Positions 2,939-31,912 of a DNA stretch of 32,000 nucleotides are shown here, one piece after another (within the stretch, counting starts at the first letter, position 1; the number at the start of each line of letters is the position of its first letter). The stretch is from Candidatus Vampirococcus lugosii (lineage in GTDB: Bacteria; Patescibacteriota; Gracilibacteria; Absconditabacterales; Absconditicoccaceae): the NCBI RefSeq assembly GCF_018420025.1, contig NZ_JAEDAM010000008.1:6451-38450 (forward strand), written 5' to 3'. Made by a program: the position numbers and the translations under genes. Below the pieces are notes generated by a model. It searched no databases. It worked only from the letters and a program-made list of their open reading frames with translations, and was not told the origin of the DNA.

Positions 2939-4057
2939 ATGAAAAGTAGTACAGATAATAAATTTTATAAAATTATTTGAGATCTAATAAAATATGAACT
3001 TTCCGATATTCATATAATTGAAGATAGTGACATATATGTTAGAAAAAATAATTGATCTATAATTTCACTTAAAGATACATCATTAGATGCTGATGAAATT
3101 TATTGATTTTTGAATGATATATTAACTGCTAGTGAAATAGATAATTTAGTAAAATGATCTGAAATAGATGTATCTTATGAATTATCTTGATTTAGATTTA
3201 GAATTAATGCATTTAGATCAAATAAATGAATAAGATTAGCATTGAGAAAAGTTGTTTCTAAACCTCAAGGTATGGAAGAAATATGATTTTCTTCTACAGT
3301 AAAAGAAAGAATATTATCAAAAAATAGTTGATTAATATTAGTTACATGACAGACTTGAAGTTGAAAATCTACATCATTAGCAGCAATTATAAATGATATT
3401 AATGAAAATAAAAATGCACATATTATAACTTTGGAAGATCCTATTGAATATGTTTTTGAAAATAAAAAATCTTTAATAACACAAAGAGAAATTTGAAAAC
3501 ATAGTCATTCTCGGACTAAAGCTATAAAATATAGTTTAAGACAAGATCCTGATATAATTATGGTATGAGAAATGAGAGATTATGAAACTATATCGGCAGT
3601 ATTAACATTAGTAGAAACATGACATCAAGTTTTTAGTACTTTACATACTATGGATTCTATACAAACTATTAGTAGAATAATTGATTCATCTCCTACTAAT
3701 AGACAAAAACAGGTAGCAACTCAACTTAGTTTAGCTTTGGATTTAATAATTTCTCAATGTTTAATTAAATCAAAAACTTGAAAAAATAGAGTTCCTGCTA
3801 GAGAAATATTAATAAATACAAGTTGAATTGCTAACAATATTAGAGAAAATAATCTTCCTCAAATGTTTTGAATTTTGGAAACATCTATGAGACACTGAAT
3901 GAATACATTAGATCAAGATATTGCAAGATTAGTGTCAAAATGAATTATAGATATAAATAATGCATCTCCATATATAAGAAATCTAGAATCTTTTAAAAAT
4001 TTACTTAAATATTACAGTTATAGCAATGAATGATTATGATTTAATCCAATTGATTAA
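2939..4057 (+). CDS. pilT: Type IV pilus retraction ATPase PilT (372 aa)
   Basis: The table-25 translation gives Walker A LILVTGQTGSGKSTSLAA, then ITLEDPIEY, Walker B/Asp box DPDIIMVGEMRD, and His box VETGHQVFSTLHT. The size and the absence of a long N-domain fit PilT rather than PilB. Confidence 0.9.
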
Positions 4058-4796
4058 AGAAAATACTTCTTTGGAAAATATTAATGCTTGAAATTATCTT
4101 TTTGAAGAAAATACATCAAATAATAGTTTGTTCTATATTGAATCTTGAACAGTTTTTTTGGAAAAATGAAATAATACATTATTCTCAATATGAGCTTGAA
4201 ATATAATAGGTGAAAAAAGTTTTATTGAAGAATCTGGTAAACCTATTTCAGCAAAAGCTCAAGATTATATTGAATATTATGAGCTTAAACATTCTGATTT
4301 TATAAATTTTTCATCGGAAATTAAACTTAAGTTTTTTAAAAATTTGTCATTAATGCTTTCCAATAGAATATATAAAATTAATAATATATTAGATAATATA
4401 AAAATTATTAATAAAAAAGTTTTGAATGAAAAATTCTTTGATAATAATTGATTTGTATCAATTTTTGATAAAATAATAGAAATAGATAAATATTTTTTAT
4501 TGAAATATCAAGTAAATTCTAATTCTTATCAAAATATACTTTCAAATAACTTTTTTTCTTTAGATATAGAAGATTTTATAAATTCTTTTTTGGAAAATTG
4601 AAAAGAATTTAAAATATGAGAAAATTATATATTTATGAAATGTGGTGAGTATATATATTTTATCATGTGAGATCTACTTTTGGATAAATACATATTATCT
4701 AATAGTTTATTTTACAATATTCCTATGTTTAAATATTTATGAAGTTTTATAGAAAAAAATCAAGCAGATAAATTTTTAGAATGATTAGAACAATAA
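4026..4796 (+). CDS. Cyclic-nucleotide-binding-like (CAP/Crp beta-barrel) domain protein (256 aa)
   Basis: Sequence NAGNYLFEENTSNNSLFYIESGTVFLEKGNNTLFSIGAGNIIGEKSFIEESGKPISAKAQDYIEYYELKHSDF matches the cNMP-binding barrel pattern (G..lF.eG...lyiv.sG.v.l......l..G...GE.s.....sA.A). The phosphate-binding-cassette Arg appears replaced (KPISA). The gene overlaps the pilT 3' end by 32 nt. Confidence 0.5.
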
Positions 4797-6116
4797 ATGA
4801 CAACTAAAAAGAAAATTTATTTTTTTATATTAACTATATTTGTAATATTCTTTGCTTGGGGGTATTACATTTTTTCTATATTTAATGAAAATAATAAAGA
4901 TTTATCTGCTGATATAAACAATAAAAATCTTTCAAATACTTGAAATATAAATCAAGATATTACATTATCTGATTTATCAAAAAAAAATAATCAAACTAAT
5001 ACAAATAAAGTTTATATACATATGCCAAAATTTTTTTATGAAAGATGATTTGAAATAATTAAAAAACAATTAAAAACAAAAAATATAGAAGTTGAATATG
5101 TACTTTATTGATCTATTTGAGAACTTAATGAATTTGTTTTTGAAAATTGAGAAAATTATGATATAGCATTAGTTCCTGATTCTACTTTTTTGAGTATGTG
5201 AGATAAAATCTTGGATTTTGATTTTTCAAATGCAAATATTAGATCAGCTTTTAATTCAATTTTTTACGATTTATTTGATGAAAATATTAGTATAATACCA
5301 TATTGAATAGATCCTTGAATAAGTATTGTAAGAGACAAAGTATTTTGGAGAAGTTTTGATAATATTGATTTCAAAACTATCAAAAGATATATATTAATTA
5401 ATTGATCCAAGAATAATTTAATAAATTTTGGTTTTGGTAAAGATTTTATATCTTGAACTAAAAGATGAATAGATATAACTTATAATTATTCATCTTTACT
5501 TTTTGATGCATTAAATGCCAGTATTGATAATAATAATTTAGATTATATAGATTTTGCTTTGGAATTATGAAAAGATTGAATTTATAAATGATTTAATCCT
5601 TATTATTTTATTAGAATTTATAAAAGTATAAAATGTGATAATTATTATTCTAGTTTATGTGTATTTTTAAAATGAAAATTAGATATTCATCTATGATATT
5701 TATCAGATATTGATATTTTATCTCAACAATCATCTTTTTCCAAAAAAGATTTTATTGTATACAATTCTCCTTTTCTTAGTGAAGAAAATTATCCAACAAA
5801 ATTGTGGTGATTTGTAATAAATAAAAATTCACAAAATATAAATTGATCAGTTAATTTTATTCAATCTTACATAGATATGTGAACAAAATGAAATAGATTG
5901 TGAAACAATAATATATTGTCAGCTTTTAATTGAGTTTACTCAAAACAAATTGATAAAGAAATTTATAATTGAATTAGAAAATTTGAAAAAAATTTCAAAA
6001 ATAATAATTATAATTACAATATATGAGATTTACTTAATAATAAATTCATAATAGATTATGTTGAATGAGAAATTGCTAATTCTTTATTTTTGGAAAAATT
6101 ATCTAATTATTTTTAA
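4797..6116 (+). CDS. Hypothetical N-terminally membrane-anchored protein with a large extracytoplasmic domain (439 aa)
   Basis: Its ATG directly abuts the upstream TAA (caaTAAATGaca). TM segment: IYFFILTIFVIFFAWGYYIFSIF. The frame is open under table 25 to TAA 6114-6116. A faint resemblance to solute-binding-protein folds is not supportable without a search. Confidence 0.55.
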
Positions 6117-8628: not shown

Positions 8629-9009
8629 TTATATTCTCATAATTTCATATTCAACTTTTGATTCTTCCAACTTTGATTTTATAGATTTTTCATTCTTATT
8701 CAAGTTAGATTTTCAAGTTTTTATCTCCAAAAAAACTATTTTATTTAAATTTCATTCACTTAATCAATCAAATACAATATAATCAATTCATTTTCATATA
8801 AAAACTAAATCTTTGTAATTATAATTAAATTGAGGTAAAATAGGAGCAATTTTTTCATTTACTTGTCATAATATTACTGATTTAGATCTTCATATAGCAT
8901 CTTTTCTTACAGATTTATTTTTAATCCAAAAATGTATTTTTGCAAACAAATATCAAATTATTAATCATATTATTATTCAAAATAATATAAAAATAAAATC
9001 CTTTTCCAT
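8629..9009 (-). CDS. Membrane-anchored Holliday-junction-resolvase-like endonuclease (COG4741-type), 126 aa
   Basis: An N-terminal TM (FIFILFGIIIGLIIGYLFA) is followed by GKGIDYIVFDGLSEGNLNKIVFLEIKTGKSNLNKNEKSIK. This matches the restriction-endonuclease-like core of the predicted secreted Hjc-related nucleases. Confidence 0.5.
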
Positions 9010-9805: not shown

Positions 9806-9840
9806 AATATCAAAACTTTATCAATAAATAAATTACCAAA

Positions 9841-9870
9841 AAAGCATCAACTGTATACAGCTAATGCTTT
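9841..9870. terminator. Bidirectional stem-loop between convergent genes
   Basis: AAAGCAT...ATGCTTT arms enclose the perfect palindrome CTGTATACAG. The hairpin sits between the rhomboid stop (9805) and the stop of the minus-strand small gene (9886). Confidence 0.4.
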
Positions 9871-9885
9871 AATAAAAGTGAATAT

Positions 9886-10062
9886 TTATCATCTATCATT
9901 TTTTCTTAAAAAAAATAGAGAGATAAATATACAGGTTATAAACCAAAAAAAGTTTAAAAGAATGCTTGTGTATATGTCGGTATGTAAGAAATTAATATAT
10001 TGTTTTAGAAATATAAATATAATAATTCCAAACATCCATACAAAAAAAGCTATGTTTTTCAT
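9886..10062 (-). CDS. Small two-TM membrane protein (58 aa; alternative TTG start at 10158 would give 90 aa)
   Basis: MKNIAFFVWMFGIIIFIFLKQYINFLHTDIYTSILLNFFWFITCIFISLFFLRKNDRG. The ATG is preceded by TAGGAGtaaatatc, a Shine-Dalgarno-like sequence that is rare in this window. One TGA precedes the TAA stop. Confidence 0.4.
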
Positions 10063-12699: not shown

Positions 12700-14430
12700 A
12701 TGCAAAATAATATATCTTTTACGAGTGAAATAATAGAAACAAAAAATGGTTTTTGTGAAACTATTGATAAATTGTTAATATCGGAAGCTTTTCAAAAATC
12801 TTTTGAACTTATTTTAGATAAAAATCTAAAATATAATAAAGATTATTTTTTATGAATATTATCAAAAATAAAAAATAATCAAAATTTGGAAAAATCTGAA
12901 AAAATAGATTTTATACATTTTGTTAGTGATAAAGAAATAATTTTAACTGCAGAAAAAATAATGTTAAAATTAAAAATTATAAATTTTTCTTTGGAAGAAG
13001 TTAAAATATTTTTGGAACAATATCCAGTATCAAAAATTATTGATAATTTAATACAAAAATCTAAAAGAGAAATATTTGAAACTATGGAGTGAGATATAGT
13101 AGAAAAAATGGTTGAATATGATGATTGAGAATTACTTATATATAAACAAATTATAAATAATACAGATAAATATTGTATAAAAAAATTATGAGAAAAATTA
13201 AAAAATGAAGATTTTAAATTTAATGTTATTTTTGATGTACAAGAAATAAATTGAGAAATTTATTCTAAAGTTAAAATATGAGAAAAACAATGATATATTA
13301 AACTATGACAAGAAAATAATACAGAAAATTTAATAAAATTTGATTTAGTTTGAAATTTACAAGAAATAAATTGAGAAATTTATTATGAAGTTAAATTATG
13401 AAATATAGAATGATATATTAAATTATGAAATGAAAATGGTGATATACTTGATATAGAATATATAAAAAAAATTAATTGAAATTCAAATTTGGAACAACAA
13501 AAAGATATAAAACCAAAAAATGAATGATTAGAAATAGCAGTTGAATATCAAAATTTAGATATGAAAGTATTTAGAAAAAAAATAAAAAATATATATAAAT
13601 ATTGTACAAAAAATAATTGAGATTCTATAGAAAAAAAAGATTTTAAATTTGATTGAATTTGGGATTTACAAGAAATAAATTGAGAAATTTATTATAAAGC
13701 TAAATTATGATCAAAAGAATGATATGTTAAATTATGAGATGAAGATAATGCAGAAAATTTAATAAAATTTGATTTAGTTTGAAATTTACAAGAAATTTAT
13801 TGAGAATATTTTTATAAAACTAAATTATGATCAAAAAAATGATATATTAAATTATGAGATGAAAATAATGCAGAAAATTTAATAAAATTTGATTTAGTTT
13901 GAAATTTACAAGAAATAAATTGAAAATATTATTATAATGTATTATTATTACATAATAAAATTCAAAAAGGATGATATATTAAATTATGAGATGAAAATAA
14001 TGCAGAAAATTTAGTAAAATTTGATTGAGTTTGAAATTTACAAGAAATAAATTGAGAATATTATTATATATGAAAAATATTATCTAATAAAATTCAGAAA
14101 GAATGATATATTAAATTATGAGATGAAGATAATGCAGAAAATTTAGTAAAATTTGATTGAGTTTGAAATTTGCAAGAAATTGATTGAGAATATTATTATA
14201 TATGAAAAATATGATCAAAAAAATGATGTATAAGATTATGAGATGAAAATAATATACAAGATTTGATTAAATTTAATTGGGTTTTTAATGTAGAAAAAAG
14301 AAATTGACAAATTATTTATTATGCCTCATTATGAAATCACTTATGATATGTAATTTATTCAGAAAGTATATTTTATTTTAGTAAATCAAAATATGGCGAA
14401 AATAAAATAGAATTAAAAAATATTAAATAA
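12700..14430 (+). CDS. Tandem-repeat protein with about 8 WG-like beta-repeat units (576 aa), tentative family
   Basis: A unique N-terminal region of about 170 aa is followed by 40-44 aa units, FDLVGNLQEINGEIYYKAKLGSKEGYIKLGDENNAENLIK. The motif x-G-Y-I-K-L-G-D-E resembles the WG/KWG repeat core (GyId..Gk). The repeat glycines are encoded by TGA. No signal peptide or TM is evident. Confidence 0.6.
13222..14340 (+). repeat. 120/132-bp in-frame tandem repeats with long near-identical DNA stretches
   Basis: The marker caagaaat(a/t)(a/t)attga recurs at 13240, 13360, 13669, 13789, 13909 and 14041, with a diverged copy (caagaaattgattga) at 14173. Spacings are 120, 309, 120, 120, 132 and 132 bp. 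Blocks such as aatgcagaaaatttaataaaatttgatttagtttgaaatttacaagaaat are identical between units. Confidence 0.85.
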
Positions 14431-14466: not shown

Positions 14467-16425
14467 TTAAAAATAATGTTTTCACATATAATATAAGATA
14501 AATCAATAATAATATCTATGTTGCATTGTCTCTCCTTTCATTCTTTGTTTATCTCAATTATAGTTTTTCATAAGAACATATTTTTCTTGACTATCAGAAT
14601 TATTTATTACTTCATTTATCATTTGATCAAAATTTGTTCTATTTACACTAACTCATTTATTTAATAAATATTTGGATACATTTTTGTATAGATTTTCTTT
14701 ATTTGACAAAATTTGATTTTTTTCAAAATTTGATAATCTATTTGTCCAATCTTCAAGTCTTTTCAAATATAGCATTCATATATCTATATTATTTTGTATA
14801 TCTAATCTTGACTTTCTATTTCTCAATTGATTAAGACTATAGAATCAGTTTCTATCTAGCATATTTTTTATAATTTCACGATCATATCTATTTGGATGTT
14901 TTATCATATCAGAGATAACTATTCATGTTATTTGAAAAAGACCAGATGATCAACTATGGCTTACAGCTTCAGTTTCAAAAATTGATTCCATATAAACTAA
15001 TGCCAAAACATCATTTTTTTCCATTATGTCTAAATTGTAATTATCAAATTTTTCCAATATAATATTAATTATATCTTGATATCTTTCAACTATTTCATTT
15101 TCATTTATATTTTCAAATTTATTTTCATCATTTTCATCATTTTCATCATTTTCATCATTTTCATTAATTTCTATACTTTCATTTTCATTATTTCATAATA
15201 TAATTTCATATATATTTATTTCTTGACCAATATTTATTCTATTTATATTACTAATTCAATTGTTTTGATTTATTACAAATTGTTTAAAATCACTCCACTT
15301 CATAGAAGTATGATCAAATAATTTATTAAAAATACTTCTCATATTATCTCAAGATTGAATTTTATATATTCATTTTTCATTATCAAATCAATTTATATTA
15401 TTCAATCATTTTTTGAAATTGTTTATTATTTCTATTTCAACATTTTCATCACTATCATCTATTTCAATATTTTCATCATTTTCATCTATTTCAATATTTT
15501 CATCATTTTCATCTATTTCAATATTTTCATCATTTTCATCTATTTCAATATTTTCATCAATTTCATCTATTTCAATACTTTCAACACTATCAATATAAGT
15601 TTTATTATTTTTTATAAATTTTATTAATTTTTTATTTTGTATATTTCATTTATTATCAATATTGTCATCATAATACATTTCAAATATATTTATCAAATTT
15701 ATTTTATCTCATATATTTAATAAATTTTGATTATTAATATTTCTGTTTCATCAAAAATTTGTTTGATCTTGCTCCCTTATATATTTATAAAATTCTCATT
15801 GTGATATTCATGTTTCTTCAAATAAATTATTATAAATATTACTTAACCAGTAATCTCTACCTTGATTTATAATAATATTTCAATTTTCTTGTATATCATT
15901 ATATTTTGAATTTATATATTTATCAAATATATCAATAGAAACTGATTTAGAATTAGATTCTAAATTTTCTGTAGAATTATTTCAATTTATTCATTTTATA
16001 TGTTCTGATAAATCTTCTTGTGTATATGAAACAACTTGTTGTATTTCTTTTTCTTGTTGTTTTAATAATTCTTGATATTCAGGAGTTTCTCAAAATTTTT
16101 TTTCTATTAAATAATCAAAAACTTTAATTATATTTATTTTATCTCATATAGAAATAATATTTATATTTGATATTTTACTTACATTTTCAACAGCTTCAAA
16201 AAAATCGATCTCGCTTATATCTATTCAAAATAAAAATTCAGTTTGTTTATTGAAATTATTATATATTTTATTTAAATTATCTCATCTTGAGATTGTATAT
16301 ATTCAAGTTTCATTATCAAAATTATCAATATCATTAAATTTACTAATTATATTTTTTATATAATCTTCAATATTATAAATATCATTATTTTCTTCAATAG
16401 TATCTGAAATTTTTTCTAAATTCAT
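14467..16425 (-). CDS. LysM-domain lytic transglycosylase (SLT family) with acidic repeat linkers (652 aa)
   Basis: Two LysM-like segments (GIYTISRGDNLNKIYNNF; GIYKIQSGDNMRSIFNKLF...INIGQEINIY) precede a C-terminal SLT catalytic signature LALVYMESIFETEAVSHSGSSGLFQIT (the E-S...G-L-x-Q-I motif). Confidence 0.75.
15121..15163 (-). repeat. 9-bp coding tandem repeat (attttcatc x about 4.5) encoding (NDE)n
   Basis: The sequence attttcatcattttcatcattttcatcattttcat is directly visible. It translates as ENDENDENDENDEN on the minus strand. Confidence 0.85.
15453..15590 (-). repeat. 27-bp coding tandem repeat (about 5 copies) encoding (ENIEIDEND)n
   Basis: tcatctatttcaata(t/c)ttt recurs at 15455, 15482, 15509, 15536 and 15563, an exact 27-bp period. 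It also generates two spurious plus-strand ORFs in the supplied track. Confidence 0.9.
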
Positions 16426-19349: not shown

Positions 19350-19736
19350 AAAATATTTGTTTAAAATTTAAATTTATTTGACAGTATATAAAAAATAAAT
19401 AATAAATCAACTTTTTTTATTGAAATAAATGTTATTTTATATATATAGAGTAAAAGACTAAAGAAATCTTTCTTCTTTTAGTTTATAGTATAAAGAAAGC
19501 AAATTTTTCTAATACTGTCTTAATACTACCTCTTAAATCTTTTAAAGGAAAAATAAATAATAATTTTAATGTATTTTTACAAAAATCAAAAAGTCTTTGA
19601 CTGAATAAAGATTCTATAGTAGATATATCTTGATTAAGGCAAATATCAAAAAAAAGAATAAATAAGAGATTATGAAAGATTTCAAAAGAAAATATATCTG
19701 AAATTGATAATAGAATTTTATTTATTTTTTGAATAA

Positions 19737-19768
19737 AAAATAAGGAGTAAATTATTACCCCTTATTTT
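19737..19768. terminator. Orphan terminator-like hairpin (14-bp stem with one mismatch, A-tract and T-tract on either side)
   Basis: AAAATAAGGAGTAA-atta-TTACCCCTTATTTT. No annotated gene ends nearby on either strand. Confidence 0.35.
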
Positions 19769-19775
19769 AGTTCCA

Positions 19776-19816
19776 CCACTTAAATTTATAAGTGGTCCAA
19801 AGATTTAAAATCTTTG
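19776..19816. other. Two further adjacent perfect hairpins
   Basis: CCACTTA-aattta-TAAGTGG lies at 19776-19795 and CAAAGAT-ttaaa-ATCTTTG at 19798-19816. This patch is locally GC-richer than the surrounding spacer. Confidence 0.35.
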
Positions 19817-19861
19817 ATAGTAAACACACTATAATAATTTTATCAATAATTGCAAGAAAAA

Positions 19862-19987
19862 ATGAAAAACTTCACAAACCTACTTTCTATTATCTTCCTA
19901 ATTTGTCTAGGATTACTTGCTTTTCATAGCAAATCTAAAATTGATTTTTCTTCAAAAATATATATTCTAATTAAAAAATTTATTTAA
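19862..19987 (+). pseudogene. Duplicated 5' fragment of the GT39-like gene (41 codons: N-terminal TM helix, then unrelated tail)
   Basis: MKNFTNLLSIIFLICLGLLAFHS matches MQNNITKFTNLLSIIFLTCLGLLAFHS at 21560. Homology ends at 19931, and the frame terminates at TAA 19985-19987. Confidence 0.55.
19871..19931 (+). repeat. Direct repeat, left copy (61 bp)
   Basis: ttcacaaacctactttctattatcttcctaatttgtctaggattacttgcttttcatagca is 59/61 identical to 21581-21641. Weaker similarity extends back to the ATG, with a 12-nt indel. Confidence 0.9.
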
Positions 19988-20000
19988 CAAAAACATTTAT

Positions 20001-21434
20001 ATGATTGATTTAAAAGCATTATTAAAAAATTTATTATTTATCTCTGAATGAGAATGATATGTTGAATTCAAAGAAAATTTTGATAAAGAAAGGGATTGAA
20101 AAAATATTTCTGCTATATCAAATATAGCACTTCTAAAATGAAAGGAATTTGGTTATATAGTTTATTGAATTGAAGATAAAACAAAAAAAGTTATTTGAAC
20201 AAAATTCAATCCAAATAATGAATTTTTTTGAAATCAAAATATAAAAATGTGGTATTCTCAAAAAATAACACCAAAACTAGACTTAGAATATCTTGAAATA
20301 GAGTATGAATGAAAAAATATTGTGATAATAAAAATCCCTTCTGCAAGTGATAAACCTATAGAATTTGACTCAAAAGCATATATAAGAATATGAGAATCAA
20401 CAACGACTCTTTCAAAATATCCTGAACTTGAAAGAAAAATATGGAATAATGAAAAAAATAAAAATTTTGAAAAACAATTAGCATCAAATAACCTAAAGGT
20501 AGATGAAATTTTAAAATTATTAGATTATGATAAATACTTTCAATTAAGTAAACAAGAATTACCTACTGAAACTTCAAAATTTCTTGAAAAAATGAATCAA
20601 GACAATTTAGTAAAGTTAAATAATGATTGAACTTATAATATAACTGTATTATGAGCAATTTTATTTGCAAGAAATATTGAAAATTTTTCTATAATAAAGA
20701 GAAAAACTATTAGAGTTATAACTTATGATTGAACAACAAAAGTAAAAAGAAAAAATGATATTGAATGAAAATATTGATATGCTATATGATTTGAATGACT
20801 AATTGATTATATCATATCTCAAGTTTGAAATAATGAAGAGATTACAAAAGCATTAAGAAAAAATACTAAAATTTATCCTGAAATAGCTTTAAGAGAGTTT
20901 ATTGCAAATGCTATAATACATCAAGATTTTTCAGTAACTTGAACTTGATCTCTTATTGAAATTTATTCAAACAGAATTGAAATAACAAATCCTTGAGTTC
21001 CTCTTATAGATACAGAAAGGTTTATAGATCATCCTCCCAGATCTAGAAATGAAGATTTAGCTTCTTTAATGAGAAGGTTTTGATTTTGTGAAGAAAGTTG
21101 ATCATGAGTTGATAGAGCTTTGATAAATATTGAATTATATCAATTACCTGCACCTAAGTTTGAAACTTTTGATGATTTTACAAAAATTACTTTATACACT
21201 CCTAGACCTTTAAAAGATATGACAAAAGATGATAAGATAAGGGCTTGTTATCAACACTGTGTATTGATGTATATAAAAATGGAAGAAAAGATGACAAATA
21301 AAAGTTTAAGAGAAAGATTAAATATTCCAGAAACAAATTATCCAGCTGCTTCAAAAATAATATCTGATACTCTAAAAGCTTGAAAAATAAAAGAATGAGA
21401 AAGATCTAAAGAATATATACCATGGTGGGCTTAA
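20001..21434 (+). CDS. Schlafen-like AlbA_2 (divergent AAA) + HATPase_c_4 + C-terminal HTH protein (COG2865-type), 477 aa
   Basis: The N-terminus has SEGEGYVEFKENF...KNIVIIKIPSASDKPI (AlbA_2 pattern). The central part has REFIANAIIHQDFSVTGTGSLIEIYSNRIEITNPGVPL (HATPase_c_4 / RecG-C-like pattern). The C-terminus has a winged-helix-like MTNKSLRERLNIPETNYPAASKIISD. Gly is heavily TGA-encoded. Confidence 0.7.
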
Positions 21435-21438
21435 TATT

Positions 21439-21544
21439 ATGTAGTGAGTATGTAGTATTTTATAAATTTAATATTAAAATACTTTAATAAAGCCTTATTT
21501 TAAAACATTTTTAACATGTAGTGAGCATGTAGTATTTTATAAAT
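21439..21544 (+). promoter_or_regulatory. Iteron-like repeats: two 29-bp direct repeats, each holding two ATGTAGT heptads
   Basis: ATGTAGTGAGTATGTAGTATTTTATAAAT lies at 21439-21467 and ATGTAGTGAGCATGTAGTATTTTATAAAT at 21516-21544. The heptads start at 21439, 21450, 21516 and 21527, giving spacings of 11, 77 and 88 bp. Confidence 0.6.
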
Positions 21545-21559
21545 AATAACTCCAAAAAA

Positions 21560-23443
21560 ATGCAAAACAATATAACAAAATTTACAAACCTACTTTCTAT
21601 TATCTTCCTAACTTGTCTAGGATTACTTGCTTTTCATAGCATATTTTGACAAGCTATTTTTTGATTTGATTTAACTAGTTACAGCTTTTGAGAATCTATT
21701 TTAAACTTACTTAAAAATCTTCAATATCCTTTAGTTATACTAGCTATATCTGTTTGAGCTTTGCTTTTTTATAGTAATAGGGAGAAGATTGAGAGTATTG
21801 AGGAGGAGCAAGAAAATGAGTTTCTTGAAGAAGAAAGGAAAAAAAGTGAGTTTGGGAGTAAGTTTCCTGTGATTAGTAGGATTCCTTTGATAAATTGGAT
21901 TGTGAAGTGGATGTATAAAGAGGGGTGGAAGTATAGTTTGGGGTTGGTTGGAATTTTAGTTTTAGCATTTATATTAAGATATATAAATTTAACTATTCTT
22001 GATCCATACAGTGATGAACCTGCACATCTTATTGCTGGTTATAATTTATTGCAAAATTGATTTGCTGAATATACTAGAGCTTTATTAGTAAGTTACAGTG
22101 TAGCATTTTTTTATTGGTTATGAAATGCATCAAGTTTTTATGAATATTTATATTGGTGAAGATTACCGTGAATAATTTTTTCATCACTTACAATAATACC
22201 ATTATATTTTTTAGCTAAAAAAATAAATAAACCTATTGCAATTATTACTATATCACTTTGGGCTATATCACCTTGGTCTATATGAGTAGCAAAATCTATA
22301 AGGGAATATGCTTTTTATCCATTTTTTGTATTAATATTTATACTTATTTGTATTAAATTTTTTGAAAATATATTTAAATGAATATTTAATAAAACAACTA
22401 TTTTTTCATGATGATTTATTTTAAGTTTCTTATATTATGTTCTGAAAATTGATACATTATCTACTTTAAAAATTTCACTATTAATTTTTGTTTCCATTTT
22501 ATGATTTTTTATAATTAAAAATTATAAAAAAGTATTTAACTTTATAAAAAATATTAAATCAAATAAAATAATTGCATCAATATTTTACATCTCTATATTA
22601 TTATTATTTTGATATATTATTTATTATGTCTTATGATCTTCACATGTAAATTTTGCATTAGAATTTAATAAAAATTATTTTAATATATTTTTAGATTGAA
22701 ATATATCATCTCCAATTCACTGGTGGAACTGATTAGAATGATATAAGTATATTTCTTATTTTTTGATTTTTTGAGCTGTATTATATTCAATATATTATAA
22801 AAAATATTATTTATTATTTATTTTAACTATATTTATTATATTAATATTCTTTTATACATTTTTATTTGATAGATATTATAAACCTAGATACATATTTTAT
22901 GTATTACCTTTTTTTACAATTTTGATTTCAACTTGAGTTTATGGATTTTACAGTTTTGTAAAATCTGCTATTTTCAAAGGAGGATTATGTAAAAAGTATA
23001 TTTCAACAGCAATTATTTTAATATTTATATTGTCTATTATTAAACCTACAAATACATTATATCCTATAACTTCAGATGAACATTGATATGTAAAAACTAC
23101 AAATGAGTATCATGATAGATTAAAAAATGCTATAAAACTTTTAGAAAATAGAATTGAAGAAAATGATGTTTTTATAAATACAATAATGTCTTCAACTCTT
23201 GAATTAGCTTTTTGAGTTGATGAAAATAACCGTTATAGATATTCTTATAAAGATGAAGATAGATTTAAAAAAGTTGATGAGATAATTGCAAATAATAATC
23301 AATGATTTATAATTTTGGACTGAAGAAGAAATGGTTATTGGGCTGAGTGATATCCTAAAGATGAATGATTTTATTCTAATGATACTTGGGTAAAAGTCTT
23401 AATGAATAAAGATTGAATTCAAATATATAGATGGAAATACTAA
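21560..23443 (+). CDS. Polytopic membrane glycosyltransferase, GT39/GT83 (PMT/ArnT)-like, with a 117-codon N-terminal extension (627 aa)
   Basis: There are more than 10 predicted TM helices. The first periplasmic loop carries DPYSDEPAHLIAGYNL (the DE motif of PMT_2/ArnT-type enzymes). A soluble C-terminal domain follows. Canonical family members would start near MYKEGWKYSLGLVGILVLAFILRYINL (about 21911). Confidence 0.5.
21581..21641 (+). repeat. Direct repeat, right copy (61 bp), inside the 5' end of the intact GT39-like gene
   Basis: See 19871-19931. The two copies are 1710 bp apart. Confidence 0.9.
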
Positions 23444-23516: not shown

Positions 23517-24893
23517 TTAAATATAATCAAATTTCACAATATTTTTTATGTCAAAAATAGCAAATCATATTTTTATATTTTTATCTAGAAATTTTTGATT
23601 TTTATTTAGAAATAAAGAAACATTATTTTTTAACTGATTTATTTCTGATTGATTTATTCTATTTTCGTTTAGTTTACATTCCAAAAATACAATATTTTCT
23701 TTTTCATCTGTATAAATTATATCTATTTCATTGTTTTTTCTATCAAGCCAGGTTCATATTTTGGTAAAAGTAAAATCAAGATTTCATTTTTTATTTTCTA
23801 AAATCAAAAAATCTTTTACTAACTTTTCAAATTTAAATCATTTGTATTTTTCAAAATCTTTCAAAACATTTTCCAAAACCAAATCATAAAGTCATAATTC
23901 AAATTTATCTTTATTTGAATAAATATACTTAAACCAAAACTCTATAAAATTATCTTTAATTTTGTATTTACTTATATTTTTTTTGCTTTCCAAAAATGGA
24001 TAATCCACTTCTATGATATCATAAATATCTATAAGTTCTTTTAAATATAAATCAATTTCTCAAGTTCAAAGTCATACTTGATCCATTATTTCATTTCTTT
24101 TGTTTTTTCAAACAGAAATAGCTTCTATAATAGCAAAAAATCTTTTATATTTCATACCAAATTCTTCTATCAAAATTTCTTTTCATTCATTTTTAAATAA
24201 TGCAAACTCATCAAAAAATAAGTCTTTTAATATTTGATTTAACTCATATTTATCATAATTTTCTCTATAAATAGATTTTAAATAATAAGCAATTCAACCA
24301 AAAATAGAATAAATATCAAGTAATATTTGATGATTATAATTTTTTCCAAAAATGTCTTTTAGTATCTCTACTTGAGTATCTAAATCAAACTCTTTGATAA
24401 ACAAGTTAAAAGTAGCTCTTTTATAAAGTGGTTCTTTTGAGTTTTCAAAGATTTTTATCATAAGACTTTGTAAACTTCCAAGTACTATTATTTTTTTATT
24501 TGATTTGTTTTGATATTGGTCAATTTTCTTTTGAAAAATAGAAAAAATTGATTTATCAACATTATTAAAATTTTGAAACTCATCTATTACAAGTAAATTT
24601 AAATCAGATTGTAAAAAGAAAAAATCCAAAAAATCTTCTATAGTTTCAAAATTGTATTTTAATCAAGTTTTTTCATAGATATATTTTTCTTGTTTTTGCA
24701 AAAAAACTTTTAGATCTGATTTTTCTACAAATATATAATAAAAATCTTTTTGTAAAATGTTGTTATTTAAGTGAGTTATAAGTTCTGTTTTTCAGACTCT
24801 TCTTTTTCCAAGTAAATAAATAAACTCAAAATTATTTGAAGTTATTTTTTGTGATAAAATTTTTATTTCTTTTTCTCTATTATAAAATTTCAT
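23517..24893 (-). CDS. AAA+ ATPase of the Arch_ATPase/DUF234 type (458 aa)
   Basis: FYNREKEIKIL...FIYLLGKRRVGKTELI (Walker A), LLVIDEFQNF (Walker B), and a C-terminal DUF234-like nuclease-fold segment WLDRKNNEIDIIYTDEKENIVFLECK. Confidence 0.7.
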
Positions 24894-29681: not shown

Positions 29682-30710
29682 TTAATCCAATAAATTCATC
29701 TCTCTTTCTATTTCTTCAAGTGTTGGAAGCAATCATTTCAAATCTTCTGGTAAATCTTCTTTTGTGATATAAGAAGCAACTCATATAGGTTTATTGACAT
29801 CTTTTAGTGCATATTCTACTATTAACCTATTTTTGTCTTTACAAAGAATTATTCAAATAGGTAAATTTTCTCATTCTATCATATCTTGTTTTTCAAGAGC
29901 AGATAAGTACATATTCATCTTTCAAGTATATTCAGATTTGAAATTCCCAGCTTTTAGTTCTATAACAACAAAACATTTTAATTTTCTATGATATAAAAGC
30001 AAATCAATATAAAAATCTTCTCATCAAATTTCAAGTTTTACTTGTCTTCAAACAAAACTAAAATAAGTTCAAAAATTTTTCAGAGTTTTTTCTATTGAAG
30101 TAACCAAAAGATCTTCCAAAGTTTTTTCCAAAAAAGGTTCCTCCAATGAAAGCAGACTAAAATCATAACTATCTTTTACAAGCAAAGATAAATCTCAATT
30201 ATTTTTTAAATCAGGTAGAGTTTCATCAAAATTTGTTTGTCTCAAAGCCCATTTTTCAAAAGCTTTAAAATTAAGCTGTTTTTCAAGTTCTCTTTTGCTC
30301 CATCTTTCTCTTATGGACATTTTTATATAAAACTCTTTTCTTAAATCATCTTTTCAATCTCAGTAATTTGTTTTATCTAATATAAAAATATGATGACTCC
30401 ATGATATTTGTGCAACCAGTGGTTGCATTTTTAGATTATCTTTATATGAAATATATAATTTTTTCATATATAAAAGATTTCTTTTAGAAAAACCTCTTCT
30501 AAATTCAGCTTCTAAATCTTTGCTAAGTTTTCAAATAATATCATCTCACCATTTAGCTTTTTCTTGTTTTTCTATGATAGATTTTCAAATATTCCAGTAA
30601 AGATGTATAAGTTCTTTATTTACTGACTTTAAAGCATTATTTCTTGCTTGTAATATATTTTGCTTAATCTCTATTAAGAAATTTTTATAATCATTTGAAA
30701 TTTTTGTCAT
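29682..30710 (-). CDS. DUF1016/YhcG-type PD-(D/E)XK nuclease, paralog A (342 aa)
   Basis: N-terminal helical domain LYWNIGKSIIEKQEKAKWGDDIIGKLSKDL...ISWSHHIFIL. C-terminal nuclease core FSFVGRQVKLEIGGEDFYIDLLLYHRKLKCFVVIELKAGNF...GKMNMYL...PIGIILC. Confidence 0.75.
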
Positions 30711-30887: not shown

Positions 30888-30909
30888 AAGGATTTTATTA
30901 AAGGTTAAA
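30849..30909 (-). repeat. Conserved 61-bp block, copy 2 (contains the stop codon of paralog B)
   Basis: See 29586-29646. Confidence 0.8.
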
Positions 30910-31912
30910 GATTTTCTAACTGTCTTTTAAAGTCTTCTTTTTTTGGTAAATAAAGATTATACTCTTTTGCAAAAATCATATTTTCTCATTCTGGAAGAGT
31001 GTATTCAACAACAATATCATTTTTTTCTTTACATAGAAGTATTCAAATAGTTTTATTTTCAAAATTTTGTTTTATTTCTCTATCATAATAATTCACATAC
31101 ATTTGCATTTGTCATATATCACCATGAGTTATTTTTCAGATTTTTAGATCTATCAAAACAAAACATTTAAGTAGTCTATTATAAAAAACTAAATCTACAT
31201 AAAAATGATCTACTCCAGCTGAAAATCTCTTTTGTCTTCATACAAAAGTAAATCATTTACCAAGTTCTAGTAAAAATGTTTCTAAATTATTTATAATAGC
31301 TGTTTCAAGCTCTGTTTCTGAATATGATGATCTTTCCTCTAATCATAAAAACTCCAAAATATATGGATCTTTTAAAACATCATTATAGTTTTCTATAATT
31401 TGTCATTTTTTAGATAATTCCAAAACTCACTTTTTATCTTTACTAAGTGTAAGTCTTTCATAAAGTGATGAATTTATTTGTCTATCAAGCTCTCTTACTG
31501 ACCAGCTATTTTCTATAGTTTCTATTATATAAAAACTTCTTTCATTTTCATCTCTAACGGATAATAGTCTTACTATATGAGTCCAAGATAATTTCCTCAT
31601 CAGTGATGAGGATTTTTCAAAATCTGGAAAATAAGTATAGAAATACCTCATTCTTTCTATATTTTGCACAGAAAAACCTTTTCAAAACTCTTTTGTTAAA
31701 TCTTTTGATAATTTTTTTAATAATTCTTTTCAATATTCAGCTCTTTTTTCTCATTTTTGCTCATATTCAACTATATATTTTCAAATACTAAAATATGTTT
31801 CTACTAAAATAGTATTTACTAAATTTATTGCTTTTTGTTTATTATTAGAAACTATTTTTCAAATCTCTTTTATAAGCATACTGTAATCGTTATTTGAAGA
31901 TATATTTGTCAT
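30905..31912 (-). CDS. DUF1016/YhcG-type PD-(D/E)XK nuclease, paralog B (335 aa)
   Basis: YFSIGKYIVEYEQKGEKRAEYGKELLKKLSKDL...LSWTHIVRLL, followed by FTFVGRQKRFSAGVDHFYVDLVFYNRLLKCFVLIDLKIGKI...GQMQMYV...TIGILLC. It absorbs the 80-aa standard-code ORF 31427-31669. Confidence 0.75.

Follow-up and report, generated by a model that had tools for sequence, protein, structure and literature searches.

A prokaryotic Schlafen gene bracketed by duplicated gene ends and followed by phased word pairs in Candidatus Vampirococcus lugosii

Integration of the Campbell type ("ends-in" integration, or insertion-duplication) proceeds by a single crossover that duplicates the segment shared by two DNA molecules and leaves a resident-type copy beside a donor-type copy. 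The SXT/R391 elements, for their part, reportedly integrate into the 5' end of prfC and regenerate the start of their target. Here, we analyze a stretch of 32,000 nucleotides (nt) from Candidatus Vampirococcus lugosii (contig NZ_JAEDAM010000008.1, positions 6,451 to 38,450 of the forward strand; hereafter the window), in which a gene encoding a prokaryotic Schlafen protein (the cargo) lies between two copies of the 5' end of a membrane-protein gene (the target gene) and is followed by pairs of short, regularly spaced words. Insertion-duplication by single crossover is a textbook outcome and the protein family is already known; our interest is in how the two are combined at this locus and at related ones.

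Recent work has identified bacterial Schlafens as antiviral tRNases, and the combination of a Schlafen domain, a GHKL ATPase domain, and a helix-turn-helix (HTH) is their commonest architecture, represented by tens of thousands of genes. According to one survey, this HisKinase-HTH class accounts for 19.2% of prokaryotic Schlafens, and in the accompanying defense screen only a DUF262 fusion and an Ig-like fusion were protective, whereas HisKinase-type genes gave no phage protection; the tested constructs are described there as carrying 100–150 nt of upstream sequence (PMC13056530). For the same architecture, termed the Schlatpase supradomain, a preprint gives a C-terminal HTH in more than 90% of proteins and a GHKL domain that drives tetramerization in a related protein (bioRxiv 10.64898/2026.05.29.728809). 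The cargo resembles these proteins in its domain order (PF04326 AlbA_2, PF13749 GHKL ATPase, C-terminal HTH) and in belonging to a class of stand-alone genes found in defense islands and restriction-modification (RM) operons. It differs in features on which the searched text of both sources is silent: neither phased word pairs, their co-variation with the protein, nor duplicated ends of neighboring genes were found in the literature searched, including PMC13056530 and bioRxiv 10.64898/2026.05.29.728809 to that extent.

A Schlafen gene between two copies of a gene start

Positions 19871–19931 and 21581–21641 of the window are identical at 59 of 61 sites. Within them lies a 58-nt core (19874–19931 and 21584–21641) with a single difference (57/58), which occurs at these two window positions only and for which 0 of 100 shuffles gave a match. 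Gapless homology extends further 5' to 19845 and 21555 (90 nt at 88%; 73/81 for 19851–19931 against 21561–21641), and in this register the ATG at 21560 aligns to an in-frame TTG at 19850. Identity is lost abruptly: the core matches at 57/58, whereas the 5' part, which comprises the first codons, matches at only about 20/29. The left copy heads a 41-codon open reading frame (ORF) at 19862–19987, MKNFTNLLSIIFLICLGLLAFHSKSKIDFSSKIYILIKKFI*, that leaves the homology at 19931/19932, and between the copies we found only a 477-codon gene (20001–21434) and a 125-nt spacer. A preliminary description made from the letters alone had reported the 61-bp repeat, the dead-end ORF losing homology at the repeat end, and an insert holding nothing but an AlbA_2/HATPase_c_4/HTH gene and a spacer, and all three were reproduced. 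The locus is composed of the following features:

19447..19752, + strand: 5'-truncated PemK/MazF-like pseudogene, the synteny anchor (by tblastn) to the uninterrupted locus of the related species L001
19793..19861, + strand: resident (ancestral) upstream/promoter region of the membrane-protein gene, now before the stub, recognized by its CCAAAGATTTAAAATCTTTGATAGTAAACA match
19851..19931, + strand: left repeat copy (DR-L), read as the 5' end of the resident membrane-protein gene, reduced to a dead-end stub
19932..20000, + strand: left end of the insert, a 19-nt junction segment followed by about 50 nt of cargo upstream/promoter sequence
20001..21434, + strand: cargo gene, a prokaryotic Schlafen of 477 amino acids (aa), based on Pfam, a model of a homolog, and Foldseek
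21438..21456, + strand: Site 1, two TATGTAGT words 11 nt apart, beginning 4 nt past the stop codon (words at +4 and +15)
21515..21533, + strand: Site 2, a second pair of words, (C)ATGTAGT, with the same 11-nt spacing, located 77 nt (7 x 11) beyond Site 1
21561..21641, + strand: right repeat copy (DR-R), read as the regenerated 5' end of the intact gene, with the MQNNITKF start followed by the 58-nt core
21560..23443, + strand: target gene, a 627-aa multi-pass membrane protein adjoining a polysaccharide-synthesis cluster

In L001, the closest related species, the PemK-like gene, the promoter, and the membrane-protein gene are uninterrupted, and the gene body is 80% identical to that of the window at the nucleotide level. 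The upstream gene of L001 matches window 19447–19752 (tblastn, 53% over 93 aa, E = 6e-23; TAA at 19750–19752), and positions 127–550 of L001 align to window 19479–19901, after which the alignment resumes at 21734. The sequence CCAAAGATTTAAAATCTTTGATAGTAAACA, which occurs once in the window, before the left copy, is found in identical form just upstream of the uninterrupted gene. Likewise, the L001 ortholog begins with MKNFTNLLS, which is the start of the left copy; the right copy starts with MQNNITKF instead, and the DNA upstream of it is unrelated. Because the promoter and start of L001 match the left copy, we take the left copy to be the resident gene start and 19932–21641 to be the insertion. 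By this comparison, the inserted segment of about 1.7 kb would lie within the first 27 codons of the membrane-protein gene, in keeping with the earlier proposal of an insertion that regenerated the 5' end of its target. The empty site that this proposal called for has a counterpart in the uninterrupted orthologous locus of L001, a related species, but none was found within the same species.

A sister assembly from another sample (L006; Logan SRR13241709) is 99.35% identical and collinear with the window, and it has both repeat copies with the same sequences as in the window. Since an independent assembly has the same structure, the repeat-bracketed locus is not an assembly artefact. The window has a base composition of about 20% G + C (GC) and contains 29 ORFs of at least 80 aa under translation table 25 as opposed to only 4 under table 11, from which we conclude that TGA is a sense codon. 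In the cargo, whose GC fraction is 0.24, 25 of 26 Gly codons are TGA, the in-frame TGA codons align with invariant Gly residues of standard-code homologs, and the nearest true homologs (70–72% identical) likewise use in-frame TGA, as expected from the preliminary remark that the gene circulates in lineages of this code. By these measures, the cargo is fully adapted to its host. A seemingly closer relative, P0028 ("95% identical"), was rejected as it is the sister strain translated with TGA as Trp.

The cargo matches the SLFN_AlbA_2 model (PF04326; residues 20–137, E = 1.4e-18, 68 bits against a cut-off of 25.3) and the HATPase_c_4 model (PF13749; residues 317–398, E = 1.2e-19, 70.5 bits against a cut-off of 26) from Pfam, so both domains named in the preliminary description were recovered by hidden Markov model search. 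Its third element, the HTH, was examined in an AlphaFold2 (AF2) model made on P0048, a standard-code homolog 60% identical to the window protein. This model (pLDDT 81.6) has a C-terminal winged helix at 410–475, with helices at 410–428, 434–441, and 445–460 and a β-hairpin wing at 464–475, and the region is conserved in the window protein. Foldseek matches comprise the uncharacterized structure 3lmm, the N-domains of mammalian SLFN11, SLFN5, and SLFN14, and GHKL kinases, and the fold of the GHKL domain resembles PDK, the CA domains of histidine kinases, and 3lmm. With AlbA_2, GHKL, and C-terminal HTH all present, the cargo belongs to the HisKinase(GHKL)-HTH, or Schlatpase-HTH, class of prokaryotic Schlafens. 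The family is large (more than 7,000 matches below 1e-10), and GTDB species genomes from different phyla contain at least 595 of its loci, with identities of 41–57%. In Escherichia coli, homologs are present in only 4 genomes, within a larger P4-like defense island, and are uninformative for pairs of filled and empty alleles. The defense context suggested earlier holds at the level of this class, which is one of defense islands and RM operons; the PADLOC match of the cargo is partial and confined to domains. The cargo may have a defense or regulatory role.

Word pairs downstream of the cargo stop codon

The 125-nt spacer between the cargo and the right copy holds two 29-nt repeats (21439–21467 and 21516–21544), which place ATGTAGT words at +5, +16, +82, and +93 after the stop codon. 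To determine how general this arrangement is, 83 family loci were scanned for an exact word of at least 7 nt repeated (almost always at a period of 11) within 60 nt after the stop codon. Such a pair is present in 43 of the 83 loci, compared with 11 of 322 control regions (p = 1e-24); broken down by control type, with about 80 regions in each of the four, the counts are 4, 2, 4, and 1. In the canonical layout, one pair of words of 7–9 nt occupies about +4 to +20 and the other about +70 to +130, on the sense strand throughout. The offsets between the two sites cluster at 66, 77, 88, 99, and 108 nt (Rayleigh R = 0.66, p = 5e-5 for a period of 11, mean phase 0.1 nt) and, being multiples of 11, indicate that both sites face one side of the helix.

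The word itself differs by lineage (ATGTAGT, ATGTAAC, ATGTGAC, ATTTGAT, TGCTTGAC, or TGTTGAT), and its type co-varies with residues 2–5 of a protein motif, N-Y-P-A-A-S in its first form, that in the AF2 model opens helix 3, the recognition helix of the winged-helix domain:

N-Y-P-A-A-S: word ATGTAGT
N-Y-P-(I/M)-x-S-R: word ATGTAAC
N-Y-S-x-x-S-R: word (A/G)TGTGA
N-S-A-x-x-S-R: word ATTTGA or TGCTTGA
N-K-(S/A)-Q-A-S: word TGTTGAT

An independent metagenome scan for ATGTAGTGRGYATGTAG returned about 18 genuine module sites, about 100 of the 120 matches being due to chance, and all of the genuine ATGTAGT sites lie 60–102 nt after the stop codon of a full-length homolog with N-Y-P-x-A-S. The words are a precise and conserved candidate DNA target for the Schlafen-GHKL-HTH class, and the constructs of published defense assays may have lacked these downstream sites.

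Several other explanations of the spacer were considered. An RNA element was rejected, as the spacer has no structure (folding z = 0.24, no consensus pairs, with the words conserved and the spacer not), no Rfam family (one sub-threshold chance match), and no tRNA. A promoter and terminator scan was uninformative in DNA of 20% GC (20 sites against 21.8 expected). Iteron-controlled origins combine an adjacent gene for a Rep initiator with an array of 17–22-bp iterons. The spacer had been called iteron-like, a label we abandon in favor of a conserved two-site signature of the whole gene family: the neighboring gene encodes Schlafen/GHKL/HTH rather than Rep, the words are 7–9 nt long and come in two pairs, and the same layout adjoins chromosomal copies across phyla, for which reason the origin reading was rejected. 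RptR, a repressor of RM islands that binds direct repeats, was also discarded as a counterpart because it is an unrelated small protein.

A closer parallel is provided by the Pho box, the operator type of PhoB/OmpR-type winged-helix proteins, which consists of two 7-bp direct repeats with an 11-bp period. The word pairs share with it direct repeats of 7–9 nt at an 11-nt period and a cognate protein with a winged helix. Unlike Pho boxes, they lie downstream of the stop codon of the presumed regulator's own gene and form two helically phased pairs 66–110 nt apart, the protein is not a response regulator, and binding is a prediction only. On the strength of the co-variation and the model, the words are probably binding sites of the protein's own winged helices. 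An oligomer probably binds the two sites together from a single face of the helix, a short way before the regenerated downstream start; the two pairs could be bridged in this way since the GHKL domain drives tetramerization in the related protein.

The words also lie within the unit that moves, as judged from a pairwise comparison of loci in which only two or three pairs are informative for the module edges. In L011 and L012, a cargo locus in another context (after a restriction-enzyme-like gene) is homologous to window 19951–21543 only, a span made up of the gene, some 50 nt before it, and some 110 nt after it in which the repeats lie. Between the Campylobacterota loci L080 and L074, the module is 96–100% identical, the adjacent RhuM gene 70–88% identical, and the other flanks unrelated, and the high-identity tract stops a few nucleotides past Site 2. 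From these edges, we define the transferable unit as promoter, gene, Site 1, spacer, and Site 2. Tandem copies of the two-site array follow one another downstream of the gene in L029 (+6 to +221 after the stop codon) and L020, and in L086, L032, L026, and L043 the array is found 20–100 nt upstream of the gene as well. These extra arrays point to crossing-over of the unequal kind between sites or to leftovers of earlier modules.

Recurrent bracketing and the route of insertion

Bracketing was assessed in 78 family loci as the best direct match between 250 nt upstream and 350 nt downstream of the gene. A score of at least 16 was obtained in 11 of the 78 loci (range 16–65), the maxima of the inverted and permuted controls being 13 and 19, respectively; among 171 other genes of these loci, just 2 scored as high (Fisher p = 7e-5). 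Four of the 11 matches are the word pairs themselves, which in these loci are also present upstream. The remaining seven (p = 0.005 when only these target-derived repeats are counted) are the duplicated 5' end of an intact downstream gene encoding RhuM (two loci), HsdR (two loci), ResIII, a biotin carboxylase, or the membrane protein of the window. These duplications set in at the start codon or a few bases from it and extend over 19 to about 100 nt, and the copies in family loci are 85–92% identical. Bracketing by the end of a neighboring gene thus affects about 10% of family loci across phyla, compared with 1% of control genes, and the two-site signature recurs across phyla as well.

The nature of the copies is best seen in three loci or pairs of loci. 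L080 and L074 are reciprocal, with the stub MTNQIKTN and an intact MNENN start in one and the converse in the other, at the same left junction; the repeat copies are therefore different alleles and did not arise as a new target-site duplication. The L013 stub joins two fragments, the 5' end of Res and, after it, the 3' end of a methylase gene, so the insert must have brought along fragments of the genes that flanked it in the donor. L130, from an independent metagenome set, has the opposite polarity, and it is the 3' end of the upstream methylase gene that is duplicated. The two bracketed control genes are likewise insertions in RM operons: in L013 (1273–2784 and 2771–2990), an unknown 503-aa gene is bracketed by a 98-nt methylase 3' end, and in L058 (608–1528), an FRG-domain gene is bracketed by a 63-nt HsdS 3' end.

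We consider it likely that the module entered the target gene by Campbell-type insertion, leaving the stub and a regenerated start, and that the word pairs are predicted sites at which its protein binds its own flank. A small circular or "ends-in" DNA would have carried the module together with about 80 nt of a homologous gene start and recombined once with the resident gene, which would have duplicated the shared segment. The resident promoter and start would thereby have become the dead-end 41-codon stub (left copy), and the incoming start would have been fused to the resident body to give the intact gene (right copy). Both the circular intermediate and the dependence on homologous recombination belong to this proposal, which requires no recombinase encoded by the element. 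Consistent with this, the cargo consists of Schlafen, GHKL, and winged-helix parts, and no integrase, transposase, or resolvase domain was found in the 29 ORFs of the window, as the preliminary description had stated in saying that the element had no recombinase of its own. The only recombination-related domain of the window, Endonuc_Holl (1.4e-36), which is related to the archaeal Holliday-junction resolvase, is part of a small membrane-anchored protein at 8629–9009 (– strand), with no evidence tying it to the insertion.

The locus agrees with Campbell-type integration in having a directly repeated piece of the target to either side of the insert, in a left copy of resident type combined with a foreign right start, and, elsewhere in the family, in the donor flanking DNA carried in. 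It departs from the textbook case in that this would be a recurrent natural route of one defense-gene family across phyla and in that the duplicated piece is the end of a neighboring gene, so that the neighbor stays intact; the circular intermediate and recA dependence are, moreover, assumed for it. Homology-facilitated illegitimate recombination is known to occur in naturally transformable bacteria. If the proposal is correct, the stub and the gene body would serve as homology arms by which ordinary recombination spreads the module to genomes with a related target. Single-gene defense cassettes could then spread without a mobility gene, by duplicating a neighbor's end, keeping the neighbor intact, and creating homology arms. 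Such spread would explain "hitchhiker" genes in RM operons and, in the window, beside a surface-polysaccharide locus of a TGA-recoded bacterium of the candidate phyla.

A number of observations count against this proposal. For the same species, neither an empty site nor a deletion product nor a circular junction came to light, and the only close relative (L006) is also filled. The resident promoter motif had no match in JGI metagenomes or GTDB genomes, and the repeat core had none in viral contigs. The MQNNITKF start is absent from all sampled homologs. The 58-nt core is near-perfect beside a 5' part of about 69% identity, and a Campbell event explains this combination of core and divergent start only with a mosaic donor allele or later gene conversion; mosaicism is plausible here, with 45 of 55 strain differences sitting in one 380-nt tract of the same gene. 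Bracketing repeats are missing from about 85–90% of family loci, which implies that there are other routes of insertion. The end of the stub and the cargo ATG are separated by a fairly narrow range of distances (31–107 nt) and the right module edge is sharp, both of which could point to defined element ends. For the predicted binding, shared ancestry of gene and flank partly confounds the co-variation of word and recognition helix.

Some of the same features would be accounted for by a nonautonomous, CIME-like element that a tyrosine or serine recombinase acting in trans, from another place in the genome or from a helper element, had inserted through recombination of an attP-like gene start with the resident attB. 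A near-perfect 58-nt core within divergent sequence is what attL and attR would look like, the 5' end is regenerated with a new N-terminus, the module edges are sharp, and L080 and L074 share their left junction. We nevertheless regard it as unlikely, since a recombinase gene was found neither in the 32 kb nor beside the module in the other loci examined, the repeats range from 19 to about 100 nt in both polarities, and those of other loci diverge along their whole length without an identical core. Related modules have entered different targets (RhuM, HsdR, Res, carboxylase, methylase 3' end, and membrane protein), and the seven target sequences have no core in common. The comparison with SXT/R391 leads to the same point: insertion in the first codons, the supply of a new start and N-terminus, and flanking direct repeats are shared, whereas SXT/R391 elements bring a tyrosine recombinase gene of their own and recombine at a fixed, short core, and the Schlafen module is 1.7 kb long, has one non-recombinase gene, and varies in target and repeat length. 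The preliminary description had left the choice between a single crossover and site-specific insertion open; the allelic copies, the variety of targets, lengths, and polarities, and the donor fragments favor the former, and a site-specific recombinase is less supported. Target-site duplication in the manner of a transposon or insertion sequence was rejected, as there is no transposase, no inverted repeats were found at the insert ends in the window comparison, and the copies are divergent alleles of variable length.

The cargo protein could also be the mobility enzyme itself, binding the word pairs at the right end and catalyzing or directing insertion next to gene starts as a new kind of autonomous element. 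A nuclease fold and an ATPase are joined in this one protein, the word pairs form the right-hand boundary of the transferable unit, co-vary with the recognition helix, and occur on both sides of the gene in some loci, and bracketing repeats are about ten times commoner than for neighboring genes. We judge this very unlikely given that the repeat copies are different alleles and not fresh duplications, that fragments of donor flanking genes are carried along, that two unrelated neighboring genes show the same kind of duplication, that left-end sites are missing in most loci, and that, according to PMC13056530, characterized Schlafen domains are tRNases and the one bacterial case tested left DNA undamaged. 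A broader idea, that gene and phased word pairs constitute an autonomous mobile or regulatory unit in which an oligomer on its own 3' flank directs insertion or takes over downstream transcription, seems to us rather unlikely. It would provide a DNA-anchored mode of action for the most numerous class of bacterial Schlafens, so far one without a function, the genes taken over being those of restriction subunits, RhuM, and surface glycosyltransferases. Finally, there may have been no insertion, the left copy being the remnant of a deleted tandem paralog or a small gene homogenized by gene conversion. The 41-codon stub ORF is indeed intact, has a start codon, encodes a hydrophobic helix, and is identical in two strains, and the hotspot upstream of the gene is rich in duplications in relatives. 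Yet relatives hold a single copy of the membrane-protein gene beside the flippase gene, the promoter and start of L001 are contiguous with a full gene, the same stub architecture is found at unrelated targets around the same cargo family, and the stub ORF is nowhere recorded as a called protein, so this reading is highly improbable.

Surroundings of the target gene

The target gene has 27 homologs, the closest of which (64%) is that of L001, and only remote ones carry PF13231/PF02366 (PMT_2/PMT). The gene itself has no Pfam match at E ≤ 1, no NCBIfam match, and no PDB sequence match, and an hhalign comparison with a PMT/PMT_2 protein, although giving a probability of 99%, extends over low-complexity regions. 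The label "GT39-like" used in the preliminary description therefore lacks a direct Pfam or NCBIfam match and goes back to remote PMT_2/PMT-carrying relatives only; it is likely rather than established, and we retain the wider designation of the product as probably a GT-C-type glycosyltransferase. The gene adjoins a polysaccharide-synthesis cluster that includes genes for a flippase, a GT4 protein, and a sulfotransferase, and the convergent Polysacc_synt flippase gene downstream of it is kept in relatives. The tract that concentrates the differences between the window and L006 (21728–22105) is about 12% divergent, compared with about 0.1% elsewhere, is GC-richer (0.32), has no TGA codon in 77 codons, and looks like an imported allelic tract.

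Variation is also seen on both sides of the gene. An ATPase_2/DUF234 gene (23517–24893, – strand), which matches the PADLOC candidate PDC-S27 at 1.3e-57, lies between the membrane-protein gene and the flippase gene; in the same slot, the flippase gene is directly adjacent in L002–L004 and a different 209-aa gene is present in L001. These gene orders make 23517–24893 a second variable slot, which flanks the target gene on the side opposite the insertion. In relatives, the region upstream of the target gene is a variable hotspot with Bro-N, ORF6N, AlbA_2, RhuM, and DUF1016 genes. L004 and L002, whose membrane-protein products are identical, differ by a strain-specific segment of 4,383 bp between direct repeats of at least 300 nt (96%). 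The repeats lie at 3301–3600 and 7684–7983 of L004, and the segment contains a 174-nt copy (99%) of the upstream region of the gene (4716–4889 and 9815–9988). A 68-nt sequence family has seven occurrences between the island genes of L004. In the window, tandem YhcG/DUF1016 PDDEXK-nuclease genes (29682–30710 and 30905–31912, – strand) adjoin the polysaccharide cluster, and fragments of this family are present in the variable island of L004.

Farther from the target gene, a 576-aa protein without a Pfam match (12700–14430, + strand) contains about seven internal repeats of about 45 aa (..FDLVGNLQEINGEYYY..GYIKLGDENNAENL..), and the gene beside it (14467–16425, – strand) encodes an SLT-domain protein with long acidic IEIDENDEN repeats.

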